A stretch of 32,000 bases of DNA from an uncultured archaeon (GCA_964354495.1 CAYHAA010000003.1:160507-192506); one strand, 5' to 3'. Positions 373-22,773 are shown, counted from the first letter of the stretch. Program-made: numbers and translations. Notes: a model not told the origin generated them from the letters alone.

Positions 373-408
373 TCTGTATCTAGTATAACGAGGTTAAAAT
401 GTTGTATC

Positions 409-1278: not shown

Positions 1279-1288
1279 TTTGACCAAT

Positions 1289-2547: not shown

Positions 2548-2557
2548 GGTGAAGTCA

Positions 2558-5054: not shown

Positions 5055-5440
5055 TGCAAGGACGAAAAATATTCAAGGGACGGGTCGTAGGGGAGGCCCT
5101 CGTCACTGGAGAGGACATTTCATTCTACGGTGGCTGCGACCCCGAAACCGGTGAGATAGTGGAAAAGGGGCACAATCTGGAGGGCAAGTCAATAGCAGGA
5201 AAAATCCTTGTCTTCCCCTCTGGAAAGGGATCTACTGTGGGCTCTTATGTCCTCTACGCCTTAAAGAAGGCCGAAAAGGCGCCCCTAGCCATAGTGAACA
5301 GGATAATGGACCCAATCGTTGCTGTGGGCTGTATCATTTCAGAGATACCTGCGGTAGACGAGATTGAGATTGAAAAGATTAAGACTGGTCAAAGAATTGA
5401 GGTGGACGCCGATAACGGCGTCGTAACTCCTGTCGAGTAA
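5054..5440 (+). CDS. Aconitase X swiveling-domain small subunit (DUF126), probable phosphomevalonate dehydratase small subunit
   Basis: GKILVFPSGKGSTVGSY motif; translationally coupled to the large subunit (TAATG). Confidence 0.87.
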   Translation: MQGRKIFKGRVVGEALVTGEDISFYGGCDPETGEIVEKGHNLEGKSIAGKILVFPSGKGSTVGSYVLYALKKAEKAPLAIVNRIMDPIVAVGCIISEIPAVDEIEIEKIKTGQRIEVDADNGVVTPVE

Positions 5441-5443
5441 GAG

Positions 5444-6079
5444 TCAGAACCGCTGAACTTGAGGCTCGAAGGCCTCTGGAGTGAAAGCCGGTTCACTCTC
5501 CTCTGGTATGTCGCCTCTCGCCTTCAGCACTTGAGTTGTCACAAGATAGTAGACCAATGCGAGTGACTTTCGACCACGATTGTTTGTAGGTATCACAAGG
5601 TCCACATTTGTGGTTGCATTGTCAGTGTCGCAGAGTGCGACTACTGGTACGCCAATCTTTGCCGCCTCGTTGAGAGCCTGCTGATCTGTGCGGGGGTCTG
5701 TGAGTATCACGACATCCGGTTCTATGTACTGTCTAGGGCCGGCAATCTTGGGATTCGTCAGTGTTCCTGGAACAAACCGCTCTGTGAAAGCATGTGCTCC
5801 AATATAATGGGCGAAGGTTTCTACAGGACGTTTACCGTATACACGACCGGATACTACGACAATCTTTGAGGGGTCGAACCGAGCAAGGAACTTGCCTACT
5901 TGTCTAATCCGCTCATCAGTCTTACGAACATCAAGAACGTATAGGCCAATTGGACGTTGCCTATAGACAAAGGGTTCCATGTCCTGTGTCTTGACCTGTG
6001 TGCCAATGTGGCATCCTGCAGCCAAGTACTTGTCCATTGGTGTTAAGAGATCTGAGTCCGGGACTTCTATATCACTCAT
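5444..6079 (-). CDS. rps2: 30S ribosomal protein uS2
   Basis: [39 protein letters not shown]. Confidence 0.97.
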
Positions 6080-6295
6080 CTATTTTACCTCCGCAGGGGT
6101 GACAGTTGAAAATGCCATGAAACTATGAATAATATCAATATGGGCAAGTAGCATTCTTCGACAACAGTATCGGTTCAGCCCGAGCTTGTCCAGAACAACT
6201 GCGGGATCCTCACCCTGCCGTACCTCTCGCCTGAACTGATCGTACTTGTCAGCGACTACTTTGCCACATGTGAAACATCGTATTGGGATTATCAT
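6080..6295 (-). CDS. rpoN: RNA polymerase subunit N (Rpo10); true start at MIIPIRC (6295), not 6409
   Basis: PIRCFTCGK and RYCCRRMLL zinc motifs. Confidence 0.96.
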
Positions 6296-6305
6296 TGAAT
6301 TCGCC

Positions 6306-6704
6306 TCACCTGTATGATTTCTGGAATCGCGAGCGAGCTGATGGACCACCGAACTTCTTTGGTTCGGTACGTCTCGGGTCTCCAACGAGCATCGTTCTGT
6401 CATGCTCAATCATCCTTGAACGGGCCTCGAAGTCTTGACTCATACGAATCAATCCGGTTGCTATCGACATTCTAACAGCGTCTGCCTGGCTCATGAATCC
6501 GCCTCCCTGAACTCTCACCTTGATGTCGTAACGCTTCCAGCCCTCACCGAAGATAATCAATGGTTCCATGATTCTCATTCGTGCCAGTTCTGGCTGATGG
6601 ATTTCCAGAGGCGTTCCATTAATCCTCACTCGGCCGGCGCCATCTCTCAACGTGGCCTTTGCAAGACTTGTCTTTCTTTTGCCTGTGCTCACAACAACCC
6701 TCAC
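6306..6704 (-). CDS. rps9: 30S ribosomal protein uS9 (probable GTG start 6704)
   Basis: [39 protein letters not shown]. Confidence 0.97.
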
Positions 6705-6705
6705 T

Positions 6706-7167
6706 TCATGCCACCTCCGGATTTCTCCAACCAAGTTCGTGGCTTAAATCACTCACTTGAATGTACTTGCTCTTCATGCTCACATAGCGCGACTTTTCAA
6801 GCACAATCCTCTCTGCATCGCGGTACTTCTCTGGGACTCCCATGTAGACCTTGACGCGTTTGAGGGCAGCCTTTGCTCTTGGGGTCGGCCATGGCAGCAT
6901 GCCCCGAATCATTCTTCGAACCATCATATCAGGTCTGCGCTCATGAAACGGGCCCAGAGTATGATTCGAGGAGGTTCGAATATCACGCTTCTCTTTGAAA
7001 GCCGCAATCAGAGACCTACGGCCGCCTGTGATAATGGCCTTCTCTGCATTGATAATGCAGACATCTTTGCCCATTAGTGCATCCTTTGCAACCCTAGTTC
7101 CAAGTCGACCGATAACCATCTTCTCAGCATCGTAGACTTTGACATTGTCTGTACTCATTGGGATCAC
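6706..7167 (-). CDS. rpl13: 50S ribosomal protein uL13
   Basis: DAEKMVIGRL, INAEKAIITG, GPFHERRPD, RGMLP. Confidence 0.96.
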   Translation of the reverse strand: MIPMSTDNVKVYDAEKMVIGRLGTRVAKDALMGKDVCIINAEKAIITGGRRSLIAAFKEKRDIRTSSNHTLGPFHERRPDMMVRRMIRGMLPWPTPRAKAALKRVKVYMGVPEKYRDAERIVLEKSRYVSMKSKYIQVSDLSHELGWRNPEVA

Positions 7168-7554
7168 CTACACAATAATCATAATGCCCGTCCCTTTCGG
7201 GGCCTGAGTAAGTAATTCGTCAATTGACATGACCGAACCACCGGCCTCAACTATCGCTGACCTCGCTGTCGAAGACGCATTCAATGCAGCAACTGTTACT
7301 TTGTGGGTAATGATGCCGGAGCCTAGAATTTTCCCGGGCACTACCACAATATCACCAGCGCTAGTATGACGCTCTATCTTGCCTATGTTCACTGCAGGAC
7401 GGTGTCTAGCAGGTTGGGCAATCATCTCAGCCACACGCTTCCAAATCCTGACATCGTGTTTCATGGATGTCTTTCTAAGCGCGTTAATCAGTGCGCGTGT
7501 ATTGGGGTCAGATGGGCCGCTTCTCACAGATCTCTCCATGTTCTCATACCTCAT
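7168..7554 (-). CDS. rpl18e: 50S ribosomal protein eL18
   Basis: IWKRVAE, VNIGKI, VVVPGKILGSG; canonical position after rpoD. Confidence 0.95.
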   Translation of the reverse strand: MRYENMERSVRSGPSDPNTRALINALRKTSMKHDVRIWKRVAEMIAQPARHRPAVNIGKIERHTSAGDIVVVPGKILGSGIITHKVTVAALNASSTARSAIVEAGGSVMSIDELLTQAPKGTGIMIIV

Positions 7555-8351
7555 AGTGAATTCGCATAATCTAGAGCTTGTCTGATTCGCTCCTTCAGAA
7601 TCTCAGCTGCCTTGTCAACAATCTGTTCAGGAGGCAATGCTCCCGTGGACTCAACCTTGAACAGATAACTATCCTTCTTTGAATCGATTGTAATTGCTCC
7701 GGGTTCGCAGACCTCGACACAGGCCTCACAGAGGCTGCAGTCGAGCGTGTTCTGTGTTGCTATTGTATCACCCTCAATGAGTAGGATGTTCTTAGGGCAT
7801 ACATCAACACAGTCCCCACATTGATTGCATTTCTCCTTGTTCACTTCAACGATTGGCACATACTTATAGGAAACAGTTGAAACGGGTTGGAACTTGGCGT
7901 TCTCAATACCCCGTCCAAGACGTGCATACGCCTCAATGATAAGATGTTGGTGAGGAGCAAGCTTCACTAGGGGAATATCACCTGATACAGGAACAATTTT
8001 CGGATCTTGTGATACAAGGTCGCGGGAATAGACGGTTTCATCTACATCGCCTGCCTGTTTCTCGAGAGTGAGGGTACATTGGCATAGACTGCAGCCTTTT
8101 CCCTCGCAGTCGCATTCCTCTGGGATATTATAGCTCTCATAGTCGGTCACTAGAGGAAGAAGCCCCATTCTGTGAGCTAACATCTCATCAAACATGACAC
8201 TGGTATTCTCTAGAATGAGCACTTCATCTATCGCCATCGCAGGCAATCTAGTAAGCATGGTTCTCCGGATTGCATTTGCAAAGGCAACATCTACTCCTTC
8301 TGCTAGGAAGTGGACAATGTTGTCTTGCTTGCGTATTATTGTGATTTCCAT
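7551..8351 (-). CDS. rpoD: RNA polymerase subunit D (Rpo3) with ferredoxin-like insert
   Basis: FANAIRRTML, DEMLAHRMGLLPL, ENAKFQPV; two CxxCxxCxxxC motifs (CNQCGDCVDVC, CSLCEACVEVC). Confidence 0.97.
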   Translation of the reverse strand: MEITIIRKQDNIVHFLAEGVDVAFANAIRRTMLTRLPAMAIDEVLILENTSVMFDEMLAHRMGLLPLVTDYESYNIPEECDCEGKGCSLCQCTLTLEKQAGDVDETVYSRDLVSQDPKIVPVSGDIPLVKLAPHQHLIIEAYARLGRGIENAKFQPVSTVSYKYVPIVEVNKEKCNQCGDCVDVCPKNILLIEGDTIATQNTLDCSLCEACVEVCEPGAITIDSKKDSYLFKVESTGALPPEQIVDKAAEILKERIRQALDYANSL

Positions 8352-8554
8352 TGACTCACCTTACTGTGGAGGTTAATCCAATACCCAAAAGACATGTTCT
8401 TCCCGGATGGACTCGCTAGTGGTGACGTTCAACCAGATAGCTCATACGCCCATGCCTTGGGCGCGTTCGTCTGCTGGCCTCGCACATAAAAGGCTTGTCC
8501 TAAGGCGATGAGATGAAGAGGCCAGTGCTCAAGTGAACACAATGTCACGGTCTA

Positions 8555-9052
8555 TCATGCAGCAACCTGGACCATATCTCTCAGTCCGTTGACAATCAGC
8601 TTGTATCCGTTTAGGCGTTCTCTTGGATCGACTGCGACCATGCCATAGGTTGGAACGCCCAGCAAATCTTGGACTGATTCAGGTCTCATAGAACCTGGAA
8701 GGTCCTGCTTGTTTGCAACTGCAATGACCTTCATTCCAGCAAGCTCGTTCTTGTATTTCTCCAAAAGCTGACGGGTCTTGAGTACAGCCTTTGGGTTACT
8801 CTCAGTGACAACTACGACCATTGTACTGCCTTTCATGAAGTCGGGCCAGAGAAACTCAAAATGCGCCTGACCACCCATCTCAACCAGAGAGACCTTTGTG
8901 GTGGCATCGATTGTGATTGTCCCGCAGTTCATACCCGGAGTTGGCTGGTAGTTGCACTGAAGCTTTGGCGCCTTGTCTGTCAGGAGCTTGATTAGAGTCG
9001 ATTTGCCTGCATAGCCTGATCCCATCAGCGCAACTTTGACATATTCGGTCAT
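8555..9052 (-). CDS. Small GTPase, Arf/Ras-like
   Basis: G1 GSGYAGKST, G2 PTPG, G3 EMGGQ followed by FLW, G4 NKQD. Confidence 0.88.
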   Translation of the reverse strand: MTEYVKVALMGSGYAGKSTLIKLLTDKAPKLQCNYQPTPGMNCGTITIDATTKVSLVEMGGQAHFEFLWPDFMKGSTMVVVVTESNPKAVLKTRQLLEKYKNELAGMKVIAVANKQDLPGSMRPESVQDLLGVPTYGMVAVDPRERLNGYKLIVNGLRDMVQVAA

Positions 9053-9237
9053 GACAGTTGAACTCCGAGATTGAAACGGTTAGACGGTGTATAGGTTGGT
9101 GTATTTCGTAGGTAACACTCATCAAGTGGCATGTCGAGCCTTCTAGGCTCTACTTAAAAATACTACAAGAATCGGTTGCTCAGAGCTATAGAAGCCCTTA
9201 ACAAGATGATACACCTCGCAAGGCCAGAGCTGATTGA

Positions 9238-10230
9238 ATGTCCTGTGATGGGCCGGTGACGATAGCAGTTGCTGAAGGAGCCCTAGTGGAACTCCGAAGA
9301 ATAGTGAGGGCCTATTCGAACCCGCTCTGCGTTTCAGACGAACTAATTCATTCTCAATACTCAGCCTATCTTGAAAAGGTCACAGGGCAGACCTGTAGAT
9401 GGTTGATGGCGTGTTCCTACTCTCAGAATTCGGTCAGTAACTTCGAAGGCGTAGATATTATCATTGGGTTCGGAGGGGGTACAAGCCTTGATGTTGCAAA
9501 ACTCATCGCAGGAAGAACAGGTCTGAATTGGATATCTGTGCCCACTGCTGCCTCTCATGACGGTATAGCAAGTGAGGTTGCATCTGTGAGTCATGACGGG
9601 TACAAATACTCGGAGAGATGCAAGGGACCCCTTGCTATCATTGCAGATATCTCGATAATCTCGAAGGCGCCGCCAAGATTGAAGTTGGCTGGCCTTGGTG
9701 ATATTATATGTAAGACGTCCAGCCTTGCAGAGTGGAAGCTAGCACATGAAGAGAAGAATGAGCCCTTTGACGAGCAGGCTTACTCAATTGTTGAAAATGC
9801 TCTCAATGCAGTGCTGAGAGATGATAGCATAGAGACTCTAATCCGAGCCGAAATCGATGCAGGCAAGGCTATGACTGTTTTCGGCAGCTCACGACCATGT
9901 TCTGGTACTGAACATGCAATCTCACACGCAATGGACCGAACATCTAGAGAGCTCCACGGTCTTCAGGTTGCATTTGCAACACCGATATGTCTGTACTATC
10001 TTGCGGAGGCAGGGTATGCAGAACATAGACCGGATGAAATTCGTGAGTTCATGTCAGCTCGGCATATGCCTACGACATTCAAAGAGATTAGGAGCACGCA
10101 GACAGCGTTCTTGGATGATATTCATCATGCCATGAAAATCATGAAGAAAAGGGGCCGGTATTCGGTCTTGGAACACCTCCATGTTGACGATTCTGATCTA
10201 TCAAGTTCATTACTGAACCTAGGTTATTGA
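9238..10230 (+). CDS. egsA: sn-glycerol-1-phosphate dehydrogenase
   Basis: GFGGGTSLDVAK, VPTAASHDGIAS, AGLGDI, SRPCSGTEHAISHA, LHGLQV. Confidence 0.9.
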   Translation: MSCDGPVTIAVAEGALVELRRIVRAYSNPLCVSDELIHSQYSAYLEKVTGQTCRWLMACSYSQNSVSNFEGVDIIIGFGGGTSLDVAKLIAGRTGLNWISVPTAASHDGIASEVASVSHDGYKYSERCKGPLAIIADISIISKAPPRLKLAGLGDIICKTSSLAEWKLAHEEKNEPFDEQAYSIVENALNAVLRDDSIETLIRAEIDAGKAMTVFGSSRPCSGTEHAISHAMDRTSRELHGLQVAFATPICLYYLAEAGYAEHRPDEIREFMSARHMPTTFKEIRSTQTAFLDDIHHAMKIMKKRGRYSVLEHLHVDDSDLSSSLLNLGY

Positions 10231-10302
10231 TGGTTCGACAGTTTTAAAAGAAGTCAACGAAACCACGCAGTGGAGCCTGATTCTCATAGAACAGGCACAG
10301 CA

Positions 10303-10328
10303 TACCGATGAAGAGATAAACCGAGGTA
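10303..10328 (+). promoter_or_regulatory. K-turn/K-loop in the rpl7ae 5' UTR overlapping the SD sequence
   Basis: TACC-GAT-GA...GA-GGTA: 4-bp stem, 3-nt bulge, tandem sheared G.A pairs. It covers SD GAGGT; TATA-like TTTTAAAA lies near 10242. Confidence 0.72.
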
Positions 10329-10329
10329 A

Positions 10330-10707
10330 ATGGTAATGCCAAAACCAAGTTTTGTTGAATGGGAGCCCACTGAGGAACTTCAGAAGAAGGCCCTTGAGGC
10401 TCTTGAGATAGCTAAGGACACAGGTAGAATCAAGAAGGGAATCAACGAAGCCACAAAGAGTATCGAGCGAGGAATTGCACGACTGGTTCTCATTGCGGAA
10501 GACGTTGAGCCACCCGAAATCATCATGTATCTTCCTGGTCTCTGTGACGATAAGAAAGCCCCCTACATCTTTGTGAAGACCAAGGCAGATCTTGGCAAGG
10601 CAGCCGGAATTGAGAGACCTACTGCTGCCATTGCAATCATAGTAGACGGCAAAGCAAAGGCGCTGGTAGACGATATCGTCGAGAAGATCAACGGCCTCCG
10701 AAAGTAG
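10330..10707 (+). CDS. rpl7ae: 50S ribosomal protein eL8 / L7Ae
   Basis: [30 protein letters not shown]. Confidence 0.97.
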
Positions 10708-10726
10708 ATTCAGGGGATGGCTTTCG

Positions 10727-10951
10727 ATGAGTAAAGATGAAGAAGTGACTCAATCAATTCCCGCAGAAATCATCCAGCTTCTAGGACGAACTGGTGTGAC
10801 TGGAGAAATCACTCAGGTACGTGTCAAGATATTGGATGGCAGGGACAAGGGAAGAGTCCTAACTCGAAATGTCAAAGGGCCCGTAAGAGAGGGTGACATT
10901 CTCATTCTGAGAGAGACAGAACGCGAAGCCCGAAAAATGAGGAGGCGCTAG
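10727..10951 (+). CDS. rps28e: 30S ribosomal protein eS28
   Basis: [27 protein letters not shown]. Confidence 0.97.
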
Positions 10952-10952
10952 G

Positions 10953-11150
10953 ATGGTCGGAACACAGCGATGTAGTTTCTGTGGAAAAGACATAGAGCCT
11001 GGAACAGGAATAGCCTATGTACAGACCAAGGACGGGTCTGTTTCTTGGTTCTGTTCCAATAAGTGCAAAGTAAACAGGATTTCGCGGGGTTTCAAACCCA
11101 AAGATACAAAGTGGACCGCCGGATATGAAAAGGGCGGCAGAGTATCATAA
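10953..11150 (+). CDS. rpl24e: 50S ribosomal protein eL24
   Basis: CSFCGKDIEPGTG, FCSNKC, KWT. Confidence 0.96.
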   Translation: MVGTQRCSFCGKDIEPGTGIAYVQTKDGSVSWFCSNKCKVNRISRGFKPKDTKWTAGYEKGGRVS

Positions 11151-11179
11151 TTGATGTATTACTGAAAGAATGGAACCAA

Positions 11180-11197
11180 AGGTGGCCTCTGCCACCT
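11180..11197. terminator. Hairpin between convergent rpl24e and ndk
   Basis: AGGTGGC-CTCT-GCCACCT, perfect 7-bp stem. Confidence 0.55.
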
Positions 11198-11204
11198 GAG
11201 GTTT

Positions 11205-11870
11205 CTACTTCGATTTTTCTACTTCTTCTCTCACAAAGTCAAAGACTGCCTTTGCAAGAGCGTTGGTTTCCTTCTGGTGGATGCCTGCTGCGTCCTTCCC
11301 GAACAGGTCCTTCAGCAAGCGAAGAGTCTTTCTGGACACGTTTCTGTCTTCAATGGCGTTCTTCACCACTTCACGGAGTTTCATGGTATAGTCAATGTCG
11401 CCATCGATGTACTGGTCGATGTAGGTACGAGCGGACACTTCTGCTCTTGGATCTTCTACAAGACCTCCCTCAGATGTCCAGAGCGCAATCTCAGATGCCG
11501 CGGTTTCTGGTGCATCTGATGCGTGTGCAATATTGATTCCAGCCCAGATGCCATATTTGCCTCTCAAGGAATCTGGTGCAGCCTTTTGGACAAAGGTCGC
11601 ACCCAAGGCATTTCGAACACCCTGGATAACACCATCAGCCTCAAAGATCATGGCTATCACAGGGGCCGAGCAAATGAAACTTACGAGCCAAGGGAAAAAG
11701 GGCTTCTCTCTGTGGACAGCATAGTGTATCTTTGCCAGAAACTCAGACACCTTCATCTCTCGAAAAGCTACTAGCTTGTATCCTCGGTCAAGGAGTGCCT
11801 GTAGCACCAGGGCGCTCACCCGCCGTCTTGCAGTACCATCGGGTTTGATAATCACAAGGGACCGTTCCAA
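11205..11870 (-). CDS. ndk: Nucleoside diphosphate kinase with a C-terminal extension of about 85 aa
   Basis: ERSLVIIKPDG, HYAVHREKPFF, SLRGKYG, NIAHASD (catalytic His); TTG start after SD GGTGAT. Confidence 0.92.
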   Translation of the reverse strand: MERSLVIIKPDGTARRRVSALVLQALLDRGYKLVAFREMKVSEFLAKIHYAVHREKPFFPWLVSFICSAPVIAMIFEADGVIQGVRNALGATFVQKAAPDSLRGKYGIWAGINIAHASDAPETAASEIALWTSEGGLVEDPRAEVSARTYIDQYIDGDIDYTMKLREVVKNAIEDRNVSRKTLRLLKDLFGKDAAGIHQKETNALAKAVFDFVREEVEKSK

Positions 11871-11926
11871 ATTGAATCACCATCTTTGATTACGCGAGAA
11901 CTGTATCCACAGGCTCCGGCAGAATA

Positions 11927-11958
11927 GGTGCTGAATATAATCCATTTCATTCAGCACC
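11927..11958. repeat. 10-bp perfect inverted repeat in the divergent ndk/infB intergenic region
   Basis: GGTGCTGAAT (11927-11936), 12-nt spacer, ATTCAGCACC (11949-11958). Confidence 0.75.
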
Positions 11959-12052
11959 GAACAGAACCAAGAATGCAATTCAGAGGGACAACGTATGAAA
12001 CGACACTTTCATAACGCATTTACTGTGACCTCAGGCAGTCCTTCCATGGGGT

Positions 12053-13840
12053 GTGCTGATGGCCGAGTCTGGAAAACTACGTTCCCCAATTGTGACAGTC
12101 CTTGGTCACATCGATCACGGAAAGACCTCTCTCCTTGATAAGATGCGTGGGACTGCAGTCCAAGCTAGGGAAGTAGGAGGAATGACACAGCATATAGGTG
12201 CATCTTTCTTTCCAACCGAAACAATTCTCTCAATCTGTGGCACTCTGCTCAATGCGGTTAAGACTGAATTGACTATTGATGGTCTACTGTTCATTGACAC
12301 ACCTGGTCATGAAGCATATCTGAATCTGAGAAGACGAGGCGGAGCCATTGCAGACATCGCAATACTAGTCATTGATATCAACGAAGGTCTTCTAAGTCAG
12401 TCATATGAGTCCCTGAAGATACTCATGTCTGGCAAGACACCGTTTCTCATTGCTGCAAACAAGCTTGACAAGGTCCCAGGGTGGATAGACAGAGAGAAAT
12501 TGTCACTTTTTCAAACCATCAAAGCCCAGACCATGTCAGTACAGACCGAGGTCGATAGAAGAATATACGAGATTGTGGGCTCACTCTCTGCAAATGGTAT
12601 CCAATCAGAGCGATTCGACCGGGTGAAGGACTTCACCAAGACTGTGGCCATAGTACCGACGAGCGCCAAGACTGGAACAGGAATTCCAGAGCTTCTGATG
12701 GTCCTCTCTGGGCTGACTCAGCAGTACATGAAGGAAAGGCTCAAGATATCGAGAGGGCCCGCAAAGGGCGCAATTCTTGAAGTCAGAGAGGAAACAGGTC
12801 TGGGTGTCACACTAGACACGATCATCTATGACGGTGTTCTGAGAAAGACAGACACAGTAGTCATTGGTGGTCTCTCTGGAGTGATAGTGGCAAAAATCAG
12901 AGCTCTGTTGCTCCCCAAGCCATTAGATGAGATTCGAGATCCAAGAGAGAAGTTCACTCAGGTAGATGTGGTCTATGCGGCAGCAGGTGTCAAAATTGTA
13001 GCTCCTGATATCGAGGGAGCAGTAGCAGGGGCGCCAGTCTATGCAGTGTCCGACCCCGAGAGACTTGAAGAAATCAAGCAGAAAGTAAAGGACGAGTTGA
13101 AGTCAATTCGAATTAAGACAGACAAATCTGGTATTGTGTTGAAAGCTGATGCATTGGGGTCCCTTGAGGCGGTGACGCAGTTCCTGCAGGAGAGACAGGT
13201 CCCTGTGCGTTCAGCAGATGTGGGCCCCATTGTGAAACGAGATGTCATCGAGGGACATGCCTCGGGCGATAGCGACCCGCTCAACGCAGTGGTCTTGGGA
13301 TTCAATGTGAAGATTACGCCAGAGATAGAGGACTTGGCAGCTGAACTGGGCGTCGAGATATTCATGAATGAGGTGATCTTTCGGTTATATGATGAGTACT
13401 ACGCATGGCTCATTGTTAAGAGAGAACAGGCAAAAGCCGAGTCGCTAGGTGCAATCATCAGACCCGGCAAGATTGAACTGATGCCCGAGTATGTCTTTAG
13501 ACACAACAATCCAGCAGTTGTAGGCGTCAAGGTCCACGGTATAGTCAAACCAAAAGCGGTACTAATCAACGGGGAGGGGAAGAGGATAGGCACTATTCTT
13601 CAGATACAGGACCGTAGCGTGCCTATTGGTGAGGCCATAGAGGGGATGGAAGTCGCTGTTTCAATTCGTGGCCCCACCGTTGGAAGACAACTGAAAAGCA
13701 GTGATATCCTGTATGTCGATATACCTGACAAACAAATACTAGCTATAAGAAAGAAGTTCATCGACGAACTCTCTCCAACAGAGAAGACAGTGTTAGAAGA
13801 ACTCACCGCAATCAAGAGGTCTGTTGGGTCATTAATATGA
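12053..13840 (+). CDS. infB: Translation initiation factor aIF5B / IF-2
   Basis: LRSPIVTVLGHIDHGKTSLLD, TQHIGA, FIDTPGHE, AANKLD. Confidence 0.97.
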   Translation: MLMAESGKLRSPIVTVLGHIDHGKTSLLDKMRGTAVQAREVGGMTQHIGASFFPTETILSICGTLLNAVKTELTIDGLLFIDTPGHEAYLNLRRRGGAIADIAILVIDINEGLLSQSYESLKILMSGKTPFLIAANKLDKVPGWIDREKLSLFQTIKAQTMSVQTEVDRRIYEIVGSLSANGIQSERFDRVKDFTKTVAIVPTSAKTGTGIPELLMVLSGLTQQYMKERLKISRGPAKGAILEVREETGLGVTLDTIIYDGVLRKTDTVVIGGLSGVIVAKIRALLLPKPLDEIRDPREKFTQVDVVYAAAGVKIVAPDIEGAVAGAPVYAVSDPERLEEIKQKVKDELKSIRIKTDKSGIVLKADALGSLEAVTQFLQERQVPVRSADVGPIVKRDVIEGHASGDSDPLNAVVLGFNVKITPEIEDLAAELGVEIFMNEVIFRLYDEYYAWLIVKREQAKAESLGAIIRPGKIELMPEYVFRHNNPAVVGVKVHGIVKPKAVLINGEGKRIGTILQIQDRSVPIGEAIEGMEVAVSIRGPTVGRQLKSSDILYVDIPDKQILAIRKKFIDELSPTEKTVLEELTAIKRSVGSLI

Positions 13841-13889
13841 TTCTGTCATCATCGGCAATGTTTTTAGGCTATCGCTAGAAGGGTCATAT

Positions 13890-14089
13890 TGCGACGGGTA
13901 GGGCTGGGTCGTTTGCCGCGACCTGTCACCGGTAATGGCAATAGCTGGAGCCAGTAACCAACATCAAGGATGAACCAGAACATCGGTGGGTCCAGTCGCA
14001 GGACGTTGACGTGCGGTCTCTTGAGTCTGTCACGGACAAAGCAGCATTCGTAGGTCTGCTGTGATTGTCATAGACTTTCGAACAGGGTT
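13890..14089 (+). ncRNA. 5' half of a split SRP (7S) RNA gene: Alu domain, helix 5 5' strand, helix 6, start of helix 8
   Basis: First ~69 nt differ from the intact copy at about 5 positions. Homology continues to ...GAACAGGGTT, then stops. TATA-like TTTTTA at 13861-13866. Confidence 0.88.
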
Positions 14090-14380
14090 TGACTGTTTTG
14101 GTTCAATCCATCCAAGTGTGCTGAAAAACTCGTATGTTGAAGGGTTCAAACCATTTTGTAGAAGTGAGGTTTTGAGTAGTCTTTTGCCTGACAATCGTAG
14201 CGAACTCTTGTCCATTGATACGCCAGCTAAGGTACTCCAGTCAATTATCCTTTCACGGCGGCGCTTCTATGTGTTCTGACACCTTCATTGATAGACTATG
14301 ACAATATTCAAATTTGTAGTTAATTATCCATATGTAAACAGGATTCATATCACTTGAAGCGTGAATACATGGGGGTTATT

Positions 14381-14518
14381 ATGATGCAGTTTAATGATAC
14401 TCTTCTTGACAGGCTCTATGCACATGTGAAGGCTTGGAAACGTAGAAACTGGTTGGTACCAGTCTTAGTAATACTACTGCTAATTATGGGTTTGTTTCCC
14501 AGTGTTGTTCTCTTCTGA
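14381..14518 (+). CDS. Putative 45-aa membrane microprotein (below the ORF-track cutoff)
   Basis: MMQFNDTLLDRLYAHVKAWKRRNWLVPVLVILLLIMGLFPSVVLF: basic patch then a C-terminal hydrophobic helix; SD-like GGGGGT upstream. Confidence 0.4.
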   Translation: MMQFNDTLLDRLYAHVKAWKRRNWLVPVLVILLLIMGLFPSVVLF

Positions 14519-14536
14519 TATGAATGTAGATGAATA

Positions 14537-14851
14537 CTAGGATGGAATTATGTGAATCCTGATGCTATAATAGTCTCCACTATAATCCAAGACAGATATC
14601 TTCACATAGTACAAGCCCTCGTAGGTCGTTACATGACCAGCAATCGCATGATTGTCAATATAGTACCATGAATATTGGAGAACATGCAAAGCATAGTCTA
14701 GAATCCAGATTATAGTGATTTTGTTCAGGAAACTTTCTTCCCGTGGATACTTGGTGGGAATCCTGCGCTTATCCTTTCGAACTACTAGAAGAATGGTAAC
14801 CAGACTCCCGATATTATCAGAAGCTGTACCCAGAACACAGGGTTTCTCCAA
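14537..14851 (-). pseudogene. Possible degraded fragment of a secreted or membrane protein gene
   Basis: TTG-start ORF of 104 aa. An overlapping frame reads NWRNPVFWVQLLIISGVWLPFF* (hydrophobic), suggesting frameshifts. No recognisable motif. Confidence 0.25.
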
Positions 14852-14909
14852 TTCTAATTAACCAAGGTAGACTCATTCAGAAGCATCTTAAATTTCGTAA
14901 CAAATGAGG

Positions 14910-15225
14910 TGCGACGGCCCTTCCACTCCGATTGTCGATTGCTCTAAGGCAAACCCACTTCATTTCTCAGAGCGGCACCCTCTGAGGCTCCACACCTTGG
15001 CCTTAGGGCTGCTCCCGCCAGGGTCTGGCCCGTTTCGGTCATCTAAGCACGCTCACAACAAACCTACGAATGTTGCTGCGGCCGATACAGACTTCAGAGA
15101 CCACCCGTCACAGTCTTGCAATGGACCAAAGAGGTCCTCGGTTCAACCTCGGTGATTGTTACTGGTTCCGGCTATTGCCATTCCGGTCACAGGTCGCGGC
15201 AAACGACCCAACCCTACCCGTCGCA
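14910..15225 (-). ncRNA. ffs: Intact archaeal SRP (7S) RNA, about 316 nt
   Basis: Helix 1 TGCGACGG/CCGTCGCA; Alu-domain CCTGTGACCGG...GCAATAGCCGG; helix 8 GGGCCAGACCC-TGGC-GGGAGCAGCCC; TATA-like CTTAAT about 25 nt upstream. Confidence 0.92.
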
Positions 15226-15327
15226 TGATGAGTTCTCTATCTTGAGGAATTAAGGCTTACGGAAAGCCCAACTCCTAAACAGTCTATGCAAATGTTTATT
15301 CAAATTCAATAATGGGATTCATACGAA

Positions 15328-15897
15328 TCATCTGGAGAGGAACTGAGTACTCATTTGTCTATCGAATAATCTGTCCAAGATGCTTCCATTCTTTTTGAAT
15401 AACTGATATATGAAGATGATAGCCATCGGACTGATCAGGATGAGTCCAATATAGATGAAAGACATTCGAGGACGTGCAGACAGCCCGCCTCGGATGATGC
15501 GAGGTTGATTATAGGGATGTGAGAGAACCCCCCCATAAATCCCAGGGTGCGGGAAGTGGACAACCCCTTGATATTCAGTAATATTTTCAAGAATAAAAAT
15601 CGGTTCAATACCCTCCAAGATTCCTGTCTCGAGGATTTGGTTCAGATCCGTGGAGTTGACTATGAAGAATGAGAAAAGACTCACATTGTCACCACTTTCC
15701 AGCCAAAGGTTCATGTCATCCGTAACAAAGAAACAACTTGCCTCGTAAGTATCTGGAAGTACAAACCCTGATATTTCACCATGTGCTGGAATGAGGAATG
15801 ACATGACCAGTAAGAGAACACCAACCACAGATACGAGCCTTGCCAAGGATATGATAGATTTCATAGATTCTAGACCTCCATTCTCTTGAAGAGCCAC
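15328..15897 (-). CDS. Hypothetical membrane protein (N-terminal signal/TM and C-terminal TM)
   Basis: Hydrophobic segments at both ends; co-directional with the ABC genes; probable start MKSIISL near 15864. Confidence 0.7.
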   Translation of the reverse strand: MALQENGGLESMKSIISLARLVSVVGVLLLVMSFLIPAHGEISGFVLPDTYEASCFFVTDDMNLWLESGDNVSLFSFFIVNSTDLNQILETGILEGIEPIFILENITEYQGVVHFPHPGIYGGVLSHPYNQPRIIRGGLSARPRMSFIYIGLILISPMAIIFIYQLFKKNGSILDRLFDRQMSTQFLSR

Positions 15898-16697
15898 ACC
15901 GAGAGGGATAGAAGCAGGACAACCATAACTGAAAGAAGAGCTACAAAGCTAAGCACTATTTCGATTGTTGGTACATTACTTAGTATAATTGGAAGTAAAC
16001 CGCTGGAGCTTTCTCCATATAGATAACGGGATATGAATATCATAGGATTCCCTATCCAACGAAGGATTTCTGGAGTGGCTATTGAATAGGAAGATGACAT
16101 TAAGCTGAACCACACTACGACGCCTCCAAGTGCGGAAACAATCATTCTCTTTGTGATTATCGCAAGGAAGACTGTTGATGTGATAATCATCAGAAGCGCT
16201 AGCCAAAAAACACCGAATAGTAAAATGCACGCTCCGAGGTTCCATGGTGCAGGAACCATAAGAAGCACAGCAAGAAGGACAGAGAATGTTACACAGGTTC
16301 CTATGATGACCGTTGGTACAACAGTTCTCATAATCAGCAGTTGCCAACGTTTTACTGGATATGATAGAATGGTCCGAAATGAATTATCCTCGAAAGATTT
16401 TGCTGTTGTGAAAGCCACTAGGAGTGGTACGATGAAAATGAGCATCGCCCAGAGTTGCTCCAGAGCTTGCGCCACTTCAAAGGTGGTGAAGATGTTGACA
16501 TAAGACAAGAAAATCTCTGTCGATTCAATTCCGGCTCCAACTGTGAAAGACAAGGTCCAACCCATCCAGTTGGAAACAGCATTAAATGAGAAATAAAGGA
16601 ACACCACAATAAGAATCTCTACTAAAGGCGACCGATAGGTATGACGAAAGTCCAGTCGTGTCACATCTAACCATTCTCTTCTCTTGACTTTACTCAT
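15870..16697 (-). CDS. ABC-2 type transporter permease
   Basis: About 6 TM segments; SFEDNSFRTILSYPVKRWQLL matches the ABC-2 E..G..R.LL..P..R pattern. Confidence 0.85.
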   Translation of the reverse strand: MSKVKRREWLDVTRLDFRHTYRSPLVEILIVVFLYFSFNAVSNWMGWTLSFTVGAGIESTEIFLSYVNIFTTFEVAQALEQLWAMLIFIVPLLVAFTTAKSFEDNSFRTILSYPVKRWQLLIMRTVVPTVIIGTCVTFSVLLAVLLMVPAPWNLGACILLFGVFWLALLMIITSTVFLAIITKRMIVSALGGVVVWFSLMSSSYSIATPEILRWIGNPMIFISRYLYGESSSGLLPIILSNVPTIEIVLSFVALLSVMVVLLLSLSVWLFKRMEV

Positions 16698-17622
16698 TCT
16701 TCACAACCTCCCTGTATACCTCTTCAAGTGTTGAGGCTTTTTCAATTGCATAGACGGTTATACCTAGAGTTTCAGCAAGGACATCCAGTTCATGCTTCAC
16801 TAAGTCGATATCTCCCGTACCAAGCGTTATGGTGAGGGTGTTGGCACCGCTTACAGTGCTTGATGTGATTTCCTCCGAGTGAATGGACTCCCGTAGTCGT
16901 TTGGGTTCAGTGCAAACCACTCTGAATGTTCTTTGTGTCCATTGCTGAATGATATTTCTCACACTTCCACTCTCGATTATCTTGCCATCTTTGATGAAGG
17001 CAACATTGTGGCAAGCCTTTTCCAGCTCTGAGAGGATGTGGGAGGAAATGAAGAAGGAGATCCCCATATCGGTGTTGAGATCGACAATAAGTCGGATGAT
17101 ATCATCGCGCCCTGTGACATCGAGGTTGGATGTTGGTTCATCAAGAAATACCAGTTCAGGATTCCCTATCAGTGCCTGCGCGATTCCTAAGCGCTGGTTC
17201 ATTCCTGCCGACAACTCGCCAATCTCTCTATCATGCGCTTCATCAAGACCTACTAGGGCGAGTAAATCTTTTGCATCGCGTTCACTTCGATAGATTCGTT
17301 TGACTCCCTGTAGATATTCGATAGTGGTGGCTGCTGGCAGAAATGATGGTCTTTCGTGAAGTACACCTATGCGGCGTCTGATCTCAAGGCTCTGTGTTTG
17401 CACATCCAGACCTAGAACCCTTGCTTCTCCGCTATCAAGGTGAGCAAGCCCAAGCAGTATACGCAGAAGTGTGGTCTTTCCAGCGCCATTAGGGCCAATC
17501 AACCCGAAAATGCATGGTTCAACTGATAGGTCTACACCATCAAGTGCTTGGACTCTCCGAAAGCTCTTCTTCAGTCCTGATACTTCAATTATAGAAGAAT
17601 TAGCAGACATCGTTACTGCCAC
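16690..17622 (-). CDS. ABC transporter ATP-binding protein
   Basis: Walker A GPNGAGKTT, signature LSAGM, Walker B VFLDEPT, SSH switch. Confidence 0.95.
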   Translation of the reverse strand: MAVTMSANSSIIEVSGLKKSFRRVQALDGVDLSVEPCIFGLIGPNGAGKTTLLRILLGLAHLDSGEARVLGLDVQTQSLEIRRRIGVLHERPSFLPAATTIEYLQGVKRIYRSERDAKDLLALVGLDEAHDREIGELSAGMNQRLGIAQALIGNPELVFLDEPTSNLDVTGRDDIIRLIVDLNTDMGISFFISSHILSELEKACHNVAFIKDGKIIESGSVRNIIQQWTQRTFRVVCTEPKRLRESIHSEEITSSTVSGANTLTITLGTGDIDLVKHELDVLAETLGITVYAIEKASTLEEVYREVVKNE

Positions 17623-17700
17623 TCCAAACCATACGACTGTTTCTACAAATGTTAGTATGATACTTATCTCTTTCGAAAAGAATCCTTATTCGATTCCCAA

Positions 17701-17816
17701 AGGCCCTGGCGGGAACAGCCCTAAGGAAGAGCGATGGAGCCCAAGAGAGAGCCGCATTGAGAAATGCACTGATTTGCCTTCGGACTACCGACATTCGAAA
17801 TCGAGGGGCCGTCGCA
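17701..17816 (+). ncRNA. 3' half of the split SRP RNA gene: rest of helix 8, helix 5 3' strand, helix 1 3' strand
   Basis: AGGCCC-TGGC-GGGAACAGCCCTAAGG...GGGCCGTCGCACCTC is colinear with the 3' part of the intact copy and pairs with 13890-14089. Confidence 0.88.
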
Positions 17817-17837
17817 CCTCTTCTTGGCCATGATACG

Positions 17838-18383
17838 CTACTTGAGTGCCTGTTCGACCTGCGATACAATGTCCTTGTAGACTGCATGAATGAATTGTTG
17901 ATCGAAGGCGTATTCCTCCTTCAGCATTTCCTCTCTCTCTGCTTCACTGAAGTATTTCATAGCTGGTTTGAAGAAGACCTTGTCTTCCTTCTCAATGTGC
18001 TTTGGATAGAAATTCACTAATCGAAGCATCGTGTCTAGTATCGTCTTCAGAGCTGCAGAGTCCCCAGCGACGTATTTGTTCTTGGCACGGACCAGTTTGC
18101 CTGTCAGATTTCTTCCCTGCACATGCTCTTCTATCAGCTCATCCATGACTTGTTTGTTGTCAGGACTGAGCTCCTTTTTCTGCAGATCACGGAATAAAAT
18201 CTTCTCTTCTTTCCCATGGTGACACAGGTCTGCATAGACGCGTATGAAATCGACTGCTCTATCGATGAATTCTGGATCCACAGCCTGCTTTTTCGTGATA
18301 CGGTCTATCTCTCTCGCCATTACTGCTATCATTCGTTCAATAAGCCTATGTTCAATCATTAATGGGCCGATTGGAAGTACCAT
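17838..18383 (-). CDS. Hemerythrin HHE cation-binding domain protein (start MVLPIG at 18383)
   Basis: EHRLI, HHGKEEKILF, EEH, HIEKEDKVFF. Confidence 0.88.
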   Translation of the reverse strand: MVLPIGPLMIEHRLIERMIAVMAREIDRITKKQAVDPEFIDRAVDFIRVYADLCHHGKEEKILFRDLQKKELSPDNKQVMDELIEEHVQGRNLTGKLVRAKNKYVAGDSAALKTILDTMLRLVNFYPKHIEKEDKVFFKPAMKYFSEAEREEMLKEEYAFDQQFIHAVYKDIVSQVEQALK

Positions 18384-18582
18384 TTTCAAACCTCCTGTTT
18401 CCTGAGATGTATCAGGCCATATGCCATTCACTATAGTTACAAACCATAATAAGATAATCAGTTACCGAAAAGTTACCATCTGACTCCAAGATAACGTCTA
18501 GGAGATGAACAGAGGCAGCGGAGGTCAGGCGGAGGTGTCGGATATTTCCTCTCCGGAATAATCTAATCAGTCTGTATCAGAA

Positions 18583-19761
18583 TTACTGTATCATGTCGGT
18601 CCTGACTTTACTTCGTTTTCTTCGGCGATGGAAGAAACCACCACTGAAAATCACCACAACAGCAGCAATGGTACCAATTATGCTAAGAAAGAGAAGGTCG
18701 TTCATTCCATTCCAGAGGCGTATTCCAAGAGCTGTCCCTCTTGTCGTTCTAAGTATCACACCATCAGCACCAACAGCCCAACCATATGTACTGTTGAGAA
18801 AATCAAGAGCCATCATACGGCGATTGACCTCACTTGGAACACTCTGTTCATACCATGTACTTCCTCCATCTGGTGTGTACATCACTGGAAGCTCGCCTGC
18901 TGCAATCCATCCATTGTCCTCAAGAAATAAGACGTCGGTGAAATAGGGTAAGGTGAGCCCTCTGAACGGTGCACGTCCTGGTATAGGTAGTTGATACCAG
19001 TCAGAACCGTTCAACGTATGCATCAGCCTTCCATCGCTCACTGCCCAGCCCTCACCATCATCCTGCATAGAGAGCGCCCAGCCGCCATAGTCATACACTT
19101 GAGTCCAAGTTTCGGCTCTGTCAGTACTATGATATATACCGAAGAATCCGATAGCCCATGCTTCAGTAGGAGAATAAAAGTGCATATCCCGGGGGAGATC
19201 ACTGAATGTCCACCCAGTAACAATAGTCCAGTTCTCTCCACCATCAATGGTCTTGTAGAGCACATCATTGGTCGCGGTCCAGCCGGTGTTCCCATCAAGG
19301 AATTTGACAAAACTCATGAATGAATGCGAATCGACGACAATGTGCTCTTCCCAAGTCAGACCCCCATCAGCTGAATGATAGACAGAACGAAATCCAGTCA
19401 CCCAGATTGAATCTTCAGCGACAATTTCTATCTGTTGATACATTTGTTCGGACCCATTCTTCAGCTGTGTCTGCCAGGTCGCCCCAGCATCAGATGTGTG
19501 TATGATAATACCATTGCCTAAGCTTCCCTCTGTCCATTGACCAACGATCCACCCATGGCTGGCATTGAAGAATGCAACATCGCTAAATAATGCTTCAGTA
19601 TAGTTCTGCTCCATTGCTATCCAAGTTGTGCTAGTTTGGTTGTCTTCCTGACTGCCGGTTGCGAGTACAGTCGACGGGCACATTGAACATAGTAATCCAA
19701 AGATGAGTGTCATGAATGTCAAGTGCAGCTTCCTGAAGTGCAGGACTGTACCTTGTTTCAT
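18583..19761 (-). CDS. Secreted BNR/Ycf48-like beta-propeller protein with C-terminal membrane anchor
   Basis: Signal peptide; repeated T.DGG.TW boxes; C-terminal TM followed by HRRRK. Confidence 0.85.
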   Translation of the reverse strand: MKQGTVLHFRKLHLTFMTLIFGLLCSMCPSTVLATGSQEDNQTSTTWIAMEQNYTEALFSDVAFFNASHGWIVGQWTEGSLGNGIIIHTSDAGATWQTQLKNGSEQMYQQIEIVAEDSIWVTGFRSVYHSADGGLTWEEHIVVDSHSFMSFVKFLDGNTGWTATNDVLYKTIDGGENWTIVTGWTFSDLPRDMHFYSPTEAWAIGFFGIYHSTDRAETWTQVYDYGGWALSMQDDGEGWAVSDGRLMHTLNGSDWYQLPIPGRAPFRGLTLPYFTDVLFLEDNGWIAAGELPVMYTPDGGSTWYEQSVPSEVNRRMMALDFLNSTYGWAVGADGVILRTTRGTALGIRLWNGMNDLLFLSIIGTIAAVVVIFSGGFFHRRRKRSKVRTDMIQ

Positions 19762-21255: not shown

Positions 21256-22773
21256 TCACATACTTCGTCTGCGATATGCTGTGGCAAGTGCCAGAACTAC
21301 AAATCCAATCGTTCCACCAACTACTAGACTCGATTGTATCAGGGATATTTCATTGCCAGAAACAGTCTGGACACATATGATGAAGGAACTATGGTAACCG
21401 GGATCACAAGGACATCCCTCTACGGAATATCCTGCGAGATATGCCTGCCCGCCTTCGCCTACTGCAATGGCATTAGTGGTTTCGCGGTACACACTTCCAT
21501 AGAGATTGGAGAAGACCACAGCACCGGCTGTATTCATGCGAATAATAAAACAATCATCTAGTCCAGAGTATGGGTTAGTTGGGTTTTGGATGAAGTCGTT
21601 AGAAGTGGTTCTACCCGTGATGTATATGTAATCATGGGAATCAATTGAGAAGGCTCCAGCGCTATCAAAACCGGAGCCTCCCATCTCCTCTGTATACTCT
21701 AAACTATCGAGGTCGTCATTGAGTCTGTAAATCGCAAACGACCAAGCAGTATGTGAGTTGTCTAGAACATATATGTAGTATTCAGAGTCGACAACTATCG
21801 AAACACTCGGGAAGAAGCCGTTAGTTTTGAAAGCCCCAGAATCGAGGAGTGTACCATTGGCTGATATCTTCAGGACAAAACAGTGCCCACCATAGTCAAT
21901 ACCTGGATAGTAGTATTCGTCGGTAGGACAAATAGATGTAATTCCAGCGACATAGATAGTACCATTATCAGTGTAGAAGAGATCTGATCCCGAATCAGTA
22001 TACTGAGCACCATAGAACGAGGCATAGACTATCTCCGTACCAGTTGGATTCATCTTCAGAACATAACAATCAGTATCACCGTTATACGTATCATCGAATG
22101 CGTCTACAATCGGGACCTCAGAGGTTCTTGTGCTACCAGCCAGATACGCATAGCCTTGTTCGTCAACTGCGAGTGCTTGAAAATCAGCACCGTTTGGTTT
22201 GTCTATGAATTCAGGCCCAAAGAAGGTCGAATAGACTAGTGTCTGCCCATCAGGAGCGAACTTAGTCAGAAAGTACTGTGATGACTCGTTGAAGTAGTCA
22301 CTATATGGATTGACCAACGGAAAATCCTCTGAGTAAGTAGAACCCAGAATATAGATGCAGCCTAAGTCATCGACACAAATTGAACTGGGATAGTCAACAT
22401 CATTTCCTCCCAAGAACGAAGAATACAGAATGGATCCATCAGTTGCATTCATCTTCATCACGAAGCAGTCGTGAGTACCACCAAGAGTGTTGTCAATCCC
22501 ATCTACGATAGGAAATGAGGTGGAACTTGTGGTTCCTGTCACATAGAGATAACCCTGCGAGTCAATAGAAATGTCCCTCAACGATCCGATAGTGGAACTA
22601 TTGAGAATCGGAGTGCAATCATTGAATGATGCAAGTTGAGCAGCATCACCCTCTATTTCCCGGGCGTTCTCTGGAGATATTGCGGGAGCTGTAGAGATTG
22701 TTAGAAATGACGCCAAAAGAAGCACTACTGAAAGAGAGAATCCGAGTCTGACTAAACCATTACGACCCGACAC
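21256..22773 (-). CDS. Secreted SBBP-type beta-propeller repeat protein with C-terminal membrane anchor
   Basis: Repeats such as DSQGYLYVTGTTSSTSFP...DCFVMKM; signal peptide; C-terminal TM followed by YRRR. Confidence 0.85.
   Translation of the reverse strand: MSGRNGLVRLGFSLSVVLLLASFLTISTAPAISPENAREIEGDAAQLASFNDCTPILNSSTIGSLRDISIDSQGYLYVTGTTSSTSFPIVDGIDNTLGGTHDCFVMKMNATDGSILYSSFLGGNDVDYPSSICVDDLGCIYILGSTYSEDFPLVNPYSDYFNESSQYFLTKFAPDGQTLVYSTFFGPEFIDKPNGADFQALAVDEQGYAYLAGSTRTSEVPIVDAFDDTYNGDTDCYVLKMNPTGTEIVYASFYGAQYTDSGSDLFYTDNGTIYVAGITSICPTDEYYYPGIDYGGHCFVLKISANGTLLDSGAFKTNGFFPSVSIVVDSEYYIYVLDNSHTAWSFAIYRLNDDLDSLEYTEEMGGSGFDSAGAFSIDSHDYIYITGRTTSNDFIQNPTNPYSGLDDCFIIRMNTAGAVVFSNLYGSVYRETTNAIAVGEGGQAYLAGYSVEGCPCDPGYHSSFIICVQTVSGNEISLIQSSLVVGGTIGFVVLALATAYRRRSM

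Follow-up and report, generated by a model that had tools for sequence, protein, structure and literature searches.

Signal recognition particle (SRP) RNA is universal, single-copy and essential. Several known processes act upon genes of this kind or upon their equivalents: tRNA and tmRNA genes serve as attachment (att) sites for prophages and islands, split and permuted tRNA genes are known in Nanoarchaeum and Caldivirga, and operon and protein genes have been described to undergo xenologous displacement in situ, in which the resident gene gives way, at its own locus, to a foreign ortholog. Here we describe an SRP RNA gene of an uncultured archaeon which is split by 3.6 kb of DNA, and this DNA carries a second, intact SRP RNA gene. 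The locus lies in a stretch of 32,000 nucleotides (the window, contig C3:160507-192506 of the genome under study, G000). Two published cases come close to it. Phage phiEf11 integrates in ffs (the 4.5S/SRP RNA gene) of Enterococcus faecalis by means of an integrase and a 27-nt core, partly rebuilding the gene (PMC12540744), and the SRP RNA of Thermoproteus tenax is permuted, with its termini at the tip of helix 8, and is repaired by bulge-helix-bulge (BHB) processing and circularisation (PMC4731332). In the literature we found no case in which an insert interrupts an SRP RNA gene and also contains a complete replacement for it.

G000 is a metagenome-assembled genome (MAG) of 3.3 Mb in 51 contigs, 97.7% complete and with 3.8% contamination. 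We assign it to the Thorarchaeota, and hence to the Asgard archaea, since its L7Ae falls in a 90%-identity cluster with members named "Candidatus Thorarchaeota archaeon". In what follows other G numbers denote the genomes of relatives and L numbers denote loci or contigs; type A is the lineage of the split resident copy and type B the lineage of the intact copy.

Window positions 13890-14089 and 17701-17816, both on the plus strand, are nt 1-200 and nt 201-316 of a single SRP RNA gene (200 + 116 = 316 nt). The joined halves form a colinear gene with the secondary structure of the family, and their alignment with the uninterrupted single-copy genes of the sister species G017 (94.0% identity) and G006 (93.7%) has no gaps. 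The 5' half comprises the Alu domain, the 5' strand of helix 5, helix 6 and the start of helix 8; it matches positions 1-199 of the nhmmer family profile with 192 bits and is 95% identical to its counterparts in G006 and G017. The 3' half, with the apical stem, loop and 3' strand of helix 8, the 3' strand of helix 5 and the 3' end, matches positions 200-316 with 91.6 bits and is 91-93% identical to the same two genes. An exact empty site is given by the synteny of the flanks: in the G006 locus (L032), positions 1-8682 correspond to window 5408-14088 and positions 8684-9379 to window 17701-18396, and the empty site is also present in G017 and G001 with the same flank pattern. From this synteny it follows that the insert is 14090-17700 (3.6 kb), with zero loss and zero duplication and with one ambiguous base, a T at 14089 where the relatives have C. 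The junctions read GGGTT^TGACTG on the left and TTCCCAA^AGGCCC on the right (a caret marks the break), and they have no common core. The alignment thus shows that the resident gene was opened between nt 200 and 201, in the 5' strand of helix 8, directly before the apical stem.

The first-pass annotation, made from the window alone, had proposed that an SRP gene was split in helix 8 by a 3.6-kb block, and that nothing was lost at the break as the two halves add up to the length of the intact copy. The gap-free 94% match to the sister genes, the colinearity with G006 and G017 and the empty site found in related genomes bear out both statements. The compensatory changes which it had listed between the two copies all appear in the alignment: TCTCTTG/CAAGAGA versus TCTCTGA/TCAGAGG in helix 5, CAGCA/TGCTG versus CAACA/TGTTG in helix 6, and GGCT/AGCC versus GGTT/AACC in the Alu region. 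It had also noted a TATA box before the 5' half, and this too is found conserved in relatives: the resident promoter at 13850-13868 (plus strand) is intact, with the TATA-like TTTTTAGG at 13861-13868, and its block CATCGGCAATGTTTTTAGG is conserved at equal distance in G006, G017, G023, G015, G002 and L115.

The intact copy, presumably the working one, is a complete B-type SRP RNA gene at 14910-15225 on the minus strand, detected by RF01857 and by nhmmer (277.6 bits), and it is 77% identical to the A-type copy of the window. Its promoter and upstream region occupy 15226-15342 (minus strand), with CCTTAATTCC at 15246-15255, and the promoter block TTCCG.AA.CCTTAATTCCTCA is conserved at all eight B-type loci (8/8). 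All inserts have in common solely the B gene and 40-120 nt upstream of it (about 117 nt in G000), where homology to L115, G062, G009, G024 and G057 stops. This comparison shows that the constant core of the foreign DNA is a complete B-type SRP gene with its own predicted promoter, in the opposite orientation.

The two copies have different origins. In the tree of infB, the left neighbor of the SRP gene, G000 groups with G006 and G017 (99 SH-aLRT), and the SRP RNA tree places the split copy likewise. A separate SRP clade, supported at 100/100, holds the intact copy along with G062, G057 and G060 (genus g22) and with G009, G007 and G024 (same genus as G000). As judged from these trees, which are based on 316 nt for the SRP RNA and on one protein for infB, the split copy is shown to be of the native lineage and the intact copy of a foreign lineage. 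The incoming gene is then from another clade than the one in which infB places its host, and the resident decays or is lost where the incoming gene is kept: relics are found in G009, G062, G024, G007, G060 and G054a, and none in G057 and G053.

These relatives display the later stages in a graded way. We surveyed 73 loci of the family: in 63 of them infB is followed about 50 nt further on by a codirectional SRP gene, which is the ancestral order, and in 10, from four genera, the SRP gene is inverted. Additional cases came from a metagenome scan whose pattern was a 3' half not preceded by the native GGG; among known loci this pattern picked junction cases exclusively. Another species, whose flanks are 74% identical, is represented by the contig L115, where the order is again 5' half, 0.4 kb, B gene on the minus strand, 0.86 kb and 3' half; its joined halves are 94.6% identical to the intact gene of G023. 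In G009, L124 and L138 (one species) we find the B gene on the minus strand, an open reading frame (ORF) of 197 aa, a full 3' half which is 94% identical to that of G023, and then the hemerythrin gene; the 5' half is absent. Progressively decayed 3' relics lie 70-170 nt upstream of the inverted gene in G062, G024, G007, G060 and G054a, and finally G057 and G053 have the inversion alone, with no relic. In five species besides these split cases, nothing is left but the inverted gene and a relic 3' half which it faces; the inverted gene is of type B, except for one with a different SRP type. Type B is the sole SRP RNA copy in six relatives.

Wherever its start is still legible, the relic 3' half begins at the identical nucleotide, (C)AGGCCCTGG, and the 3' half is preceded by ...GATTCCCAA in G000, ...CATAAGAC in G009, ...CTTGATAG in L115 and ...ATCTACTT in G062. 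In G000, L115 and G009 the 3' half carries no mutation in its 20 junction-proximal nt, which are changed in old relics such as that of G024. The B copies of G000, L115 and G009 differ by 10-18%. L115 and G009 are sister species (infB 89% identical) with B copies 90% identical, and their cargo is wholly different up to the same nucleotide. G024 and G007, which have type B, are 92-93% identical in infB to G015, which has an intact A gene, and yet the relic of G024 and G007 is heavily decayed. In a phylum-wide sample of 151 genomes searched with the Rfam model, an extra partial SRP hit was found in G000 alone, and no other split gene.

The survey gave further observations on this locus. The SRP RNAs of genus g1 fall in three places of the tree (types A, B and C; loci L014-L081), each beside other genera, and infB keeps most of g1 together; exchange of SRP RNA genes thus seems, from the tree, to be frequent in the family. 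At L061 (G049:C47, 617-3313) a full SRP gene is followed by 2.28 kb and then by a direct repeat of nt 222-316 (about 95 nt, two mismatches), and the interval contains a 340-aa ORF and a BNR fragment, without integrase; this repeat may be the outcome of a direct nested copy or reflect an att-type event of its own. Inserted DNA of 1.2-2.3 kb separates infB from the SRP gene at L079 (G018), L068 (G019) and L066 (G021), and at L043, L047, L049 and L168 of genus g15; at these spacer loci the SRP gene points the same way as infB in G018, G019, G021 and G045 and the opposite way in G044, G047 and G048, and no relic was detected. A second infB-SRP locus in G054 of genus g19 (L076, G054:C13) has an infB 81% identical to that of the window, and both of its genes group in g1 type C; it is probably a contaminating contig in that MAG.

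The split copy itself is in good condition. In a comparison with G017, G006 and outgroups, 14 substitutions are specific to its lineage and about 6 to that of each sister, and the host branch of the sisters is about five times shorter. Of 93 consensus pairs 86 are kept and 7 broken (4-8 are broken in functional relatives), and its energy on the consensus structure is -81.9, within the range of the relatives (-72 to -90). By these measures the split copy shows no decay. This means either that the insertion is recent or that the halves are under continued selection. Gene conversion from B into the halves was considered and found unconvincing, as 4-5 of the 14 G000-specific changes match the B state. 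At SRP position 308 (region of window 17816) the disrupted A copies of G000, L115 and G009 read GGGGCC and their closest intact relatives GGAGCC, and the resident B copies of the same three also have G; this could be a short-patch gene conversion from the inverted copy or a coincidence.

Neither copy is found by standard annotation, for Rfam at the gathering threshold gives zero hits in the window. In E-value mode RF01857 matches the intact copy at 14912-15223 (minus strand, model 1-317, 91.6 bits, E 2e-20, for a gathering score of 96.5), in agreement with its earlier identification as SRP RNA, and it also finds the 5' half at 13892 (plus strand). The B copy is below the cut-off, but the sole SRP RNA of each of 24 genomes of the same genus scores between 80 and 112 bits on this model, so that the sub-threshold score is a trait of the lineage and not of the B copy. 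The gathering score is passed by 28 of the 87 genomes of the order, and most Thorarchaeota SRP RNAs, falling under it, are missed in standard annotation.

We consider that a foreign SRP RNA gene is displacing an essential resident in place and that it enters at a recurrent point in helix 8, with a repeated site-specific break or recombination as the favored way of entry; we give this explanation a probability of roughly 0.7. The resident A gene was opened at nt 200/201, and foreign DNA with the inverted B gene fills the gap. The B copy would now supply the SRP RNA, since an insertion into a single-copy essential gene survives solely if it brings a working copy. The inverted orientation alone would persist, as survivorship, probably because a nested copy in direct orientation would be lost through recombination with the halves. 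The resident halves would become dispensable: the 5' half and its promoter would be lost first, then the 3' half would turn into a relic, until the inverted gene stands alone beside infB. In G000 the event would be recent, since the halves are undecayed. Later pieces may have been added at the same junction, the cargo sitting between the conserved block upstream of B and the junction.

Entry is the least certain step. It might proceed by repeated breakage or recombination at the exact site, through an activity which acts in trans and is not encoded by the insert; the other reading of entry is a spread by homologous recombination, and we lean to the former. A site-specific step is favored since the same nucleotide is used at the right junction in at least four lineages despite four unrelated abutting sequences and three unrelated cargos, since the B copies of the sisters L115 and G009 are merely 90% identical, and since the 20 nt at the junction are unmutated in the three fresh cases and changed in the old relics.

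Several observations weigh against this explanation. The inserts examined (Pfam, PHROG) show no match to a recombinase, nuclease, transposase or phage family, and the PF00589 integrase has zero hits at E<=1 in the whole of G000, not even a XerA-like gene. The ends of the insert are not conserved between instances, as a recombinase acting on the ends of an element would require. The left junction of L115 is offset by 3 nt, with GGT of the helix 8 stem missing. The tree of the B gene roughly tracks the host tree, as would also be expected from vertical inheritance or from exchange between close relatives. We infer that B is the working copy from its completeness, from the conservation of its promoter and from its status as sole copy in relatives. 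Finally, all the evidence comes from short-read metagenome assemblies.

The search for an agent of entry gave the following results. The earlier statement that the insert has no integrase, terminal repeats or target duplication agrees with our negative Pfam, PHROG and repeat searches: terminal inverted or direct repeats and target duplication were not found at the insert beyond chance. There is no second, guide-like copy of the target 20-mer in G000. The similarity between the left arms of G000 and L115 (z 3.1 on a mononucleotide shuffle, a test which we distrust) is not significant. All 16 TnpB-type hits of G000 and its two IS607-type resolvase genes (on C22 and C24) lie outside the insert; IS110 was not found in this genome. 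The insert has no tnpA or tnpB, and the absence of terminal repeats and of target duplication would fit IS200/IS605/IS607 elements but is nonspecific. No ORF of the inserts of G000, L115 and G009 matches a homing endonuclease family, no ORF is common to these inserts, and the sole LAGLIDADG match in G000 is a 1144-aa ORF elsewhere on C3.

Among the other explanations, the one which survives best says that B was inserted illegitimately once, long ago, and was then spread between related species by homologous recombination with crossovers in the SRP halves. The constant junction and the fresh-looking halves of the recipients would then be expected, since the crossovers fall inside the halves, the most conserved sequence of the neighborhood. 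It accords with the identical junction position in all lineages, with a B core which forms a single clade, and with the lack of mobility genes and conserved ends. B-bearing and A-only species are interleaved, and the case of G024 and G007 versus G015 shows exchange of the whole locus. L115 and G024/G007 share the final 7-8 nt before the junction, and of the seven changes specific to G000 in the 5' half, three sit in its last 17 nt, although this clustering is not significant. An old tract should however have changed at the start of the 3' half, as in G024, and yet these 20 nt are free of mutations in G000, L115 and G009 though their B copies differ by 10-18%; nor does an old insertion account well for the sisters L115 and G009, with B copies at 90% and unrelated cargo at the same nucleotide. 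We hold this explanation to be unlikely, but it deserves to be kept in mind.

A more specific proposal makes the B gene the antidote of a selfish module resembling cleave-and-rescue: an activity in trans (possibly from a virus, a plasmid or a guided nuclease) would break the resident gene at nt 200, and a resistant B copy would be installed. The site reads GGGCCAGACCC in the B copy versus GGGTCAGGCCC in type A. If this were true, the module would spread through Thorarchaeota as the only working copy, and the host would never be able to lose B. This proposal is tentative and we would not bet on it.

The first-pass annotation had offered, as one option, an island which disrupted the resident gene and supplied a full replacement. 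Disruption with full replacement stands, on the empty site, the native split copy and the relics; the term island was too strong, for there is no mobility gene and there are no defined ends. A further explanation is a classical integrative element, virus or plasmid, with an attB in helix 8 and an SRP gene of its own, which has since lost its integrase and att sites. Stable-RNA genes, bacterial ffs among them, are known attachment sites (PMC12540744), the direct repeat of nt 222-316 in G049 resembles an att repeat and comes from the same region of the gene, the GC content of the insert is lower, and G006, G017 and G001 have the empty site. But neither an integrase nor a fragment of one is present in the inserts of G000, L115, G009 and G049, the junctions have no att core repeat, the target gene is not rebuilt, and the smallest inserts measure no more than about 0.5-1.6 kb. 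When IMG/VR was scanned for a conserved SRP motif of 19 nt, six contigs came up, matched over about 27 nt, none of which has an SRP RNA gene of this family. A decayed element of this kind is therefore doubtful. The six contigs (L082-L087) match exactly the SRP Alu-domain motif GGGTCGTTTGCSGCGACCT and are SRP-like over those 27 nt alone.

Another option had been that the halves still assemble in trans. In such a functional split gene both halves would be expressed and would pair through helices 2, 5 and 8, or be joined as RNA, to give a second A-type SRP RNA. The halves are indeed undecayed in two species, the promoter of the 5' half is intact, the cofold of the halves (-113.9 kcal/mol) is stronger than the sum of the separate folds (-99.6), and Thermoproteus tolerates a break at the helix 8 tip through circularisation (PMC4731332). 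However, no BHB motif or complementary ends were found: the cofold of the junctions has a z of 0.65 versus shuffles, and the duplex of the insert ends (-19.6) does not surpass that of shuffles (-22.9 +/- 4.5). Unrelated sequences precede the 3' half in G000, L115 and G009, and there appears to be nothing conserved to drive this half. L115 has lost its 3 nt of the helix 8 stem, G009 its 5' half, and the relics of G024, G007, G060, G062 and G054a decay. Moreover a complete copy is always alongside, so that the halves are not the sole source of the RNA. Trans assembly was thus not upheld and is very improbable. The remaining option had been that the 5' half works as an Alu-bearing RNA. A truncated RNA of the 5' half, devoid of the SRP54 site, is probably made, given the intact promoter and a T-run after the break, and the early loss of the 5' half in relatives suggests that it may be useless or harmful.

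The assembly itself appears sound. Over 6-10 kb that include both junctions, three Logan assemblies of separate runs (ERR3804373, ERR4334728 and ERR4334727) are colinear with the window and 99.96-99.99% identical to it, and the two 50-nt junction strings occur in all three without a mismatch. All four contigs on record which contain the hemerythrin gene of this species carry the insert (4/4), and among them no empty-site allele of the species was seen. Within the limits of short reads, a mis-join is excluded. An assembly chimera of two co-occurring strains or species, which the 51 contigs and 3.8% contamination of the MAG and the 92% identity of the ABC fragment described below to the DNA of another species might suggest, has next to no probability against three separate run assemblies with both junctions exact, four hemerythrin-bearing contigs out of four with the insert, junctions which have no shared sequence such as a graph mis-join needs, and an equal architecture in other species and samples. 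All three Logan contigs stop exactly at window 19944, inside the variable region of a BNR gene; this suggests a repeat or strain variation which breaks assemblies.

By its homologies the insert is a patchwork and not a tidy element, made of an arm which matches no lineage, the B-type SRP gene and a truncated ABC fragment. The left arm (14090-14909, 820 nt, GC 0.39-0.42) has short ORFs alone (104, 72 and 54 aa); it has zero matches in 86 genomes of the family, and its ORFs have zero Pfam or PHROG hits. A T-run at 14096-14099, 7-10 nt into the insert, could terminate the transcript of the 5' half. Beyond the B promoter region lies a captured ABC-2 transporter cassette fragment (15410-17629, minus strand), recognized by Pfam ABC_tran and by nucleotide identity to metagenome contigs: the ATPase is at 16690-17610/17622, the permease at 15870-16697, and the third gene is cut at 15410, giving a fused ORF at 15328-15897. 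The fragment is 92% identical to L094 (a metagenome contig of another species), 88% to L140 and L141 and 81% to L095, and the cassette has a different context there; it is native in the species of L094, whose flanks are merely 66-79% identical to those of G000. A search of the genome contigs for the ABC permease gave nothing, the family genomes holding merely paralogs at <=31% identity.

In all four related contigs the ABC homology ends at 15410, inside the third gene, whose C-terminus is replaced. At the other end it stops at 17629/17631 in L094 and L095, which reach it, 7-9 nt before the ATPase start. The ABC part thus looks like an illegitimately captured, truncated fragment, a separate piece with the B promoter region on one side and the right junction on the other. 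The first-pass annotation had described the insert as an intact SRP RNA and an ABC-2 cassette; both are present, but the ABC part is a separately acquired, truncated fragment. The final 71 nt of the insert (17630-17700), outside the ABC homology, reach the right junction, and their similarity to the junction-proximal ends of the other inserts is not significant. Four of the six differences between assemblies fall in the insert, with single-nucleotide polymorphisms at 14460 and 14753 in the left arm. At window 15527 the ERR3804373 assembly carries an extra C, which shifts the frame of the fused third ORF (118 vs 178 aa). The frameshift and the clustering of variants suggest that there may be little constraint on the cargo, and the ABC cargo is probably already degenerating.

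The neighbors of the locus are conserved. On the left is the aIF5B/infB gene (12053-13840, plus strand; Pfam GTP_EFTU, IF-2 and GTP_EFTU_D4), which keeps this place family-wide. On the right a gene with a hemerythrin domain (17838-18431, minus strand; Pfam Hemerythrin) adjoins the SRP gene in G006, G017 and G002 as well (tblastn). The region downstream of the SRP locus is variable, and the genes at 18583-19761 (BNR/YCF48-like, 392 aa) and 21256-22773 (SBBP beta-propeller, 505 aa) are not at the matching place in the G006 locus; the remaining window consists of core genes (RNA polymerase A'/A'', EF-1alpha, L7Ae, NDK), and no tRNA gene was found in the window.

The exchange of essential RNA genes between lineages is rarely visible. 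Here the locus of G000 would be the intermediate and the relatives the graded later stages, which would account for two oddities of the family, namely the flip of orientation beside infB in 10 of 73 genomes and the conflict between the SRP RNA tree and the species tree. If an activity does target the helix 8 site, it would amount to a natural drive which replaces the essential gene.

We file this locus as a combination of two known kinds, insertional disruption and xenologous displacement. It is like the integration of phiEf11 in that an SRP RNA gene is the target, the insertion is precise and relatives have the empty site. It differs from it in having no integrase, no core and no rebuilding of the gene, a whole inverted second gene being substituted instead. 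It shares with Thermoproteus a break in helix 8 of an archaeal SRP RNA gene, which suggests, by analogy, that helix 8 may be a preferred point of entry or breakage in the gene. However, Thermoproteus has a single gene restored by BHB processing and ligation, whereas here there is no BHB and no pairing of leader and trailer, and a second complete gene would cover the function. The homing of intron and intein endonucleases is similar in its precise conserved site in an essential gene, in the absence of target duplication and terminal repeats, in the empty sites and in the cycle of invasion and decay; here no endonuclease gene is recognizable, there is no self-splicing, and the rescue would come from a spare gene copy. 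The resemblance to xenologous displacement lies in a foreign version at the resident locus, in the loss of the resident and in the grouping of each of the g1 types A, B and C with other genera. What distinguishes the present case from it is that the intermediate is visible, with the incoming gene nested and inverted and with graded relics in the relatives, that the gene is an essential non-coding RNA gene, and that the entry recurs at one nucleotide.

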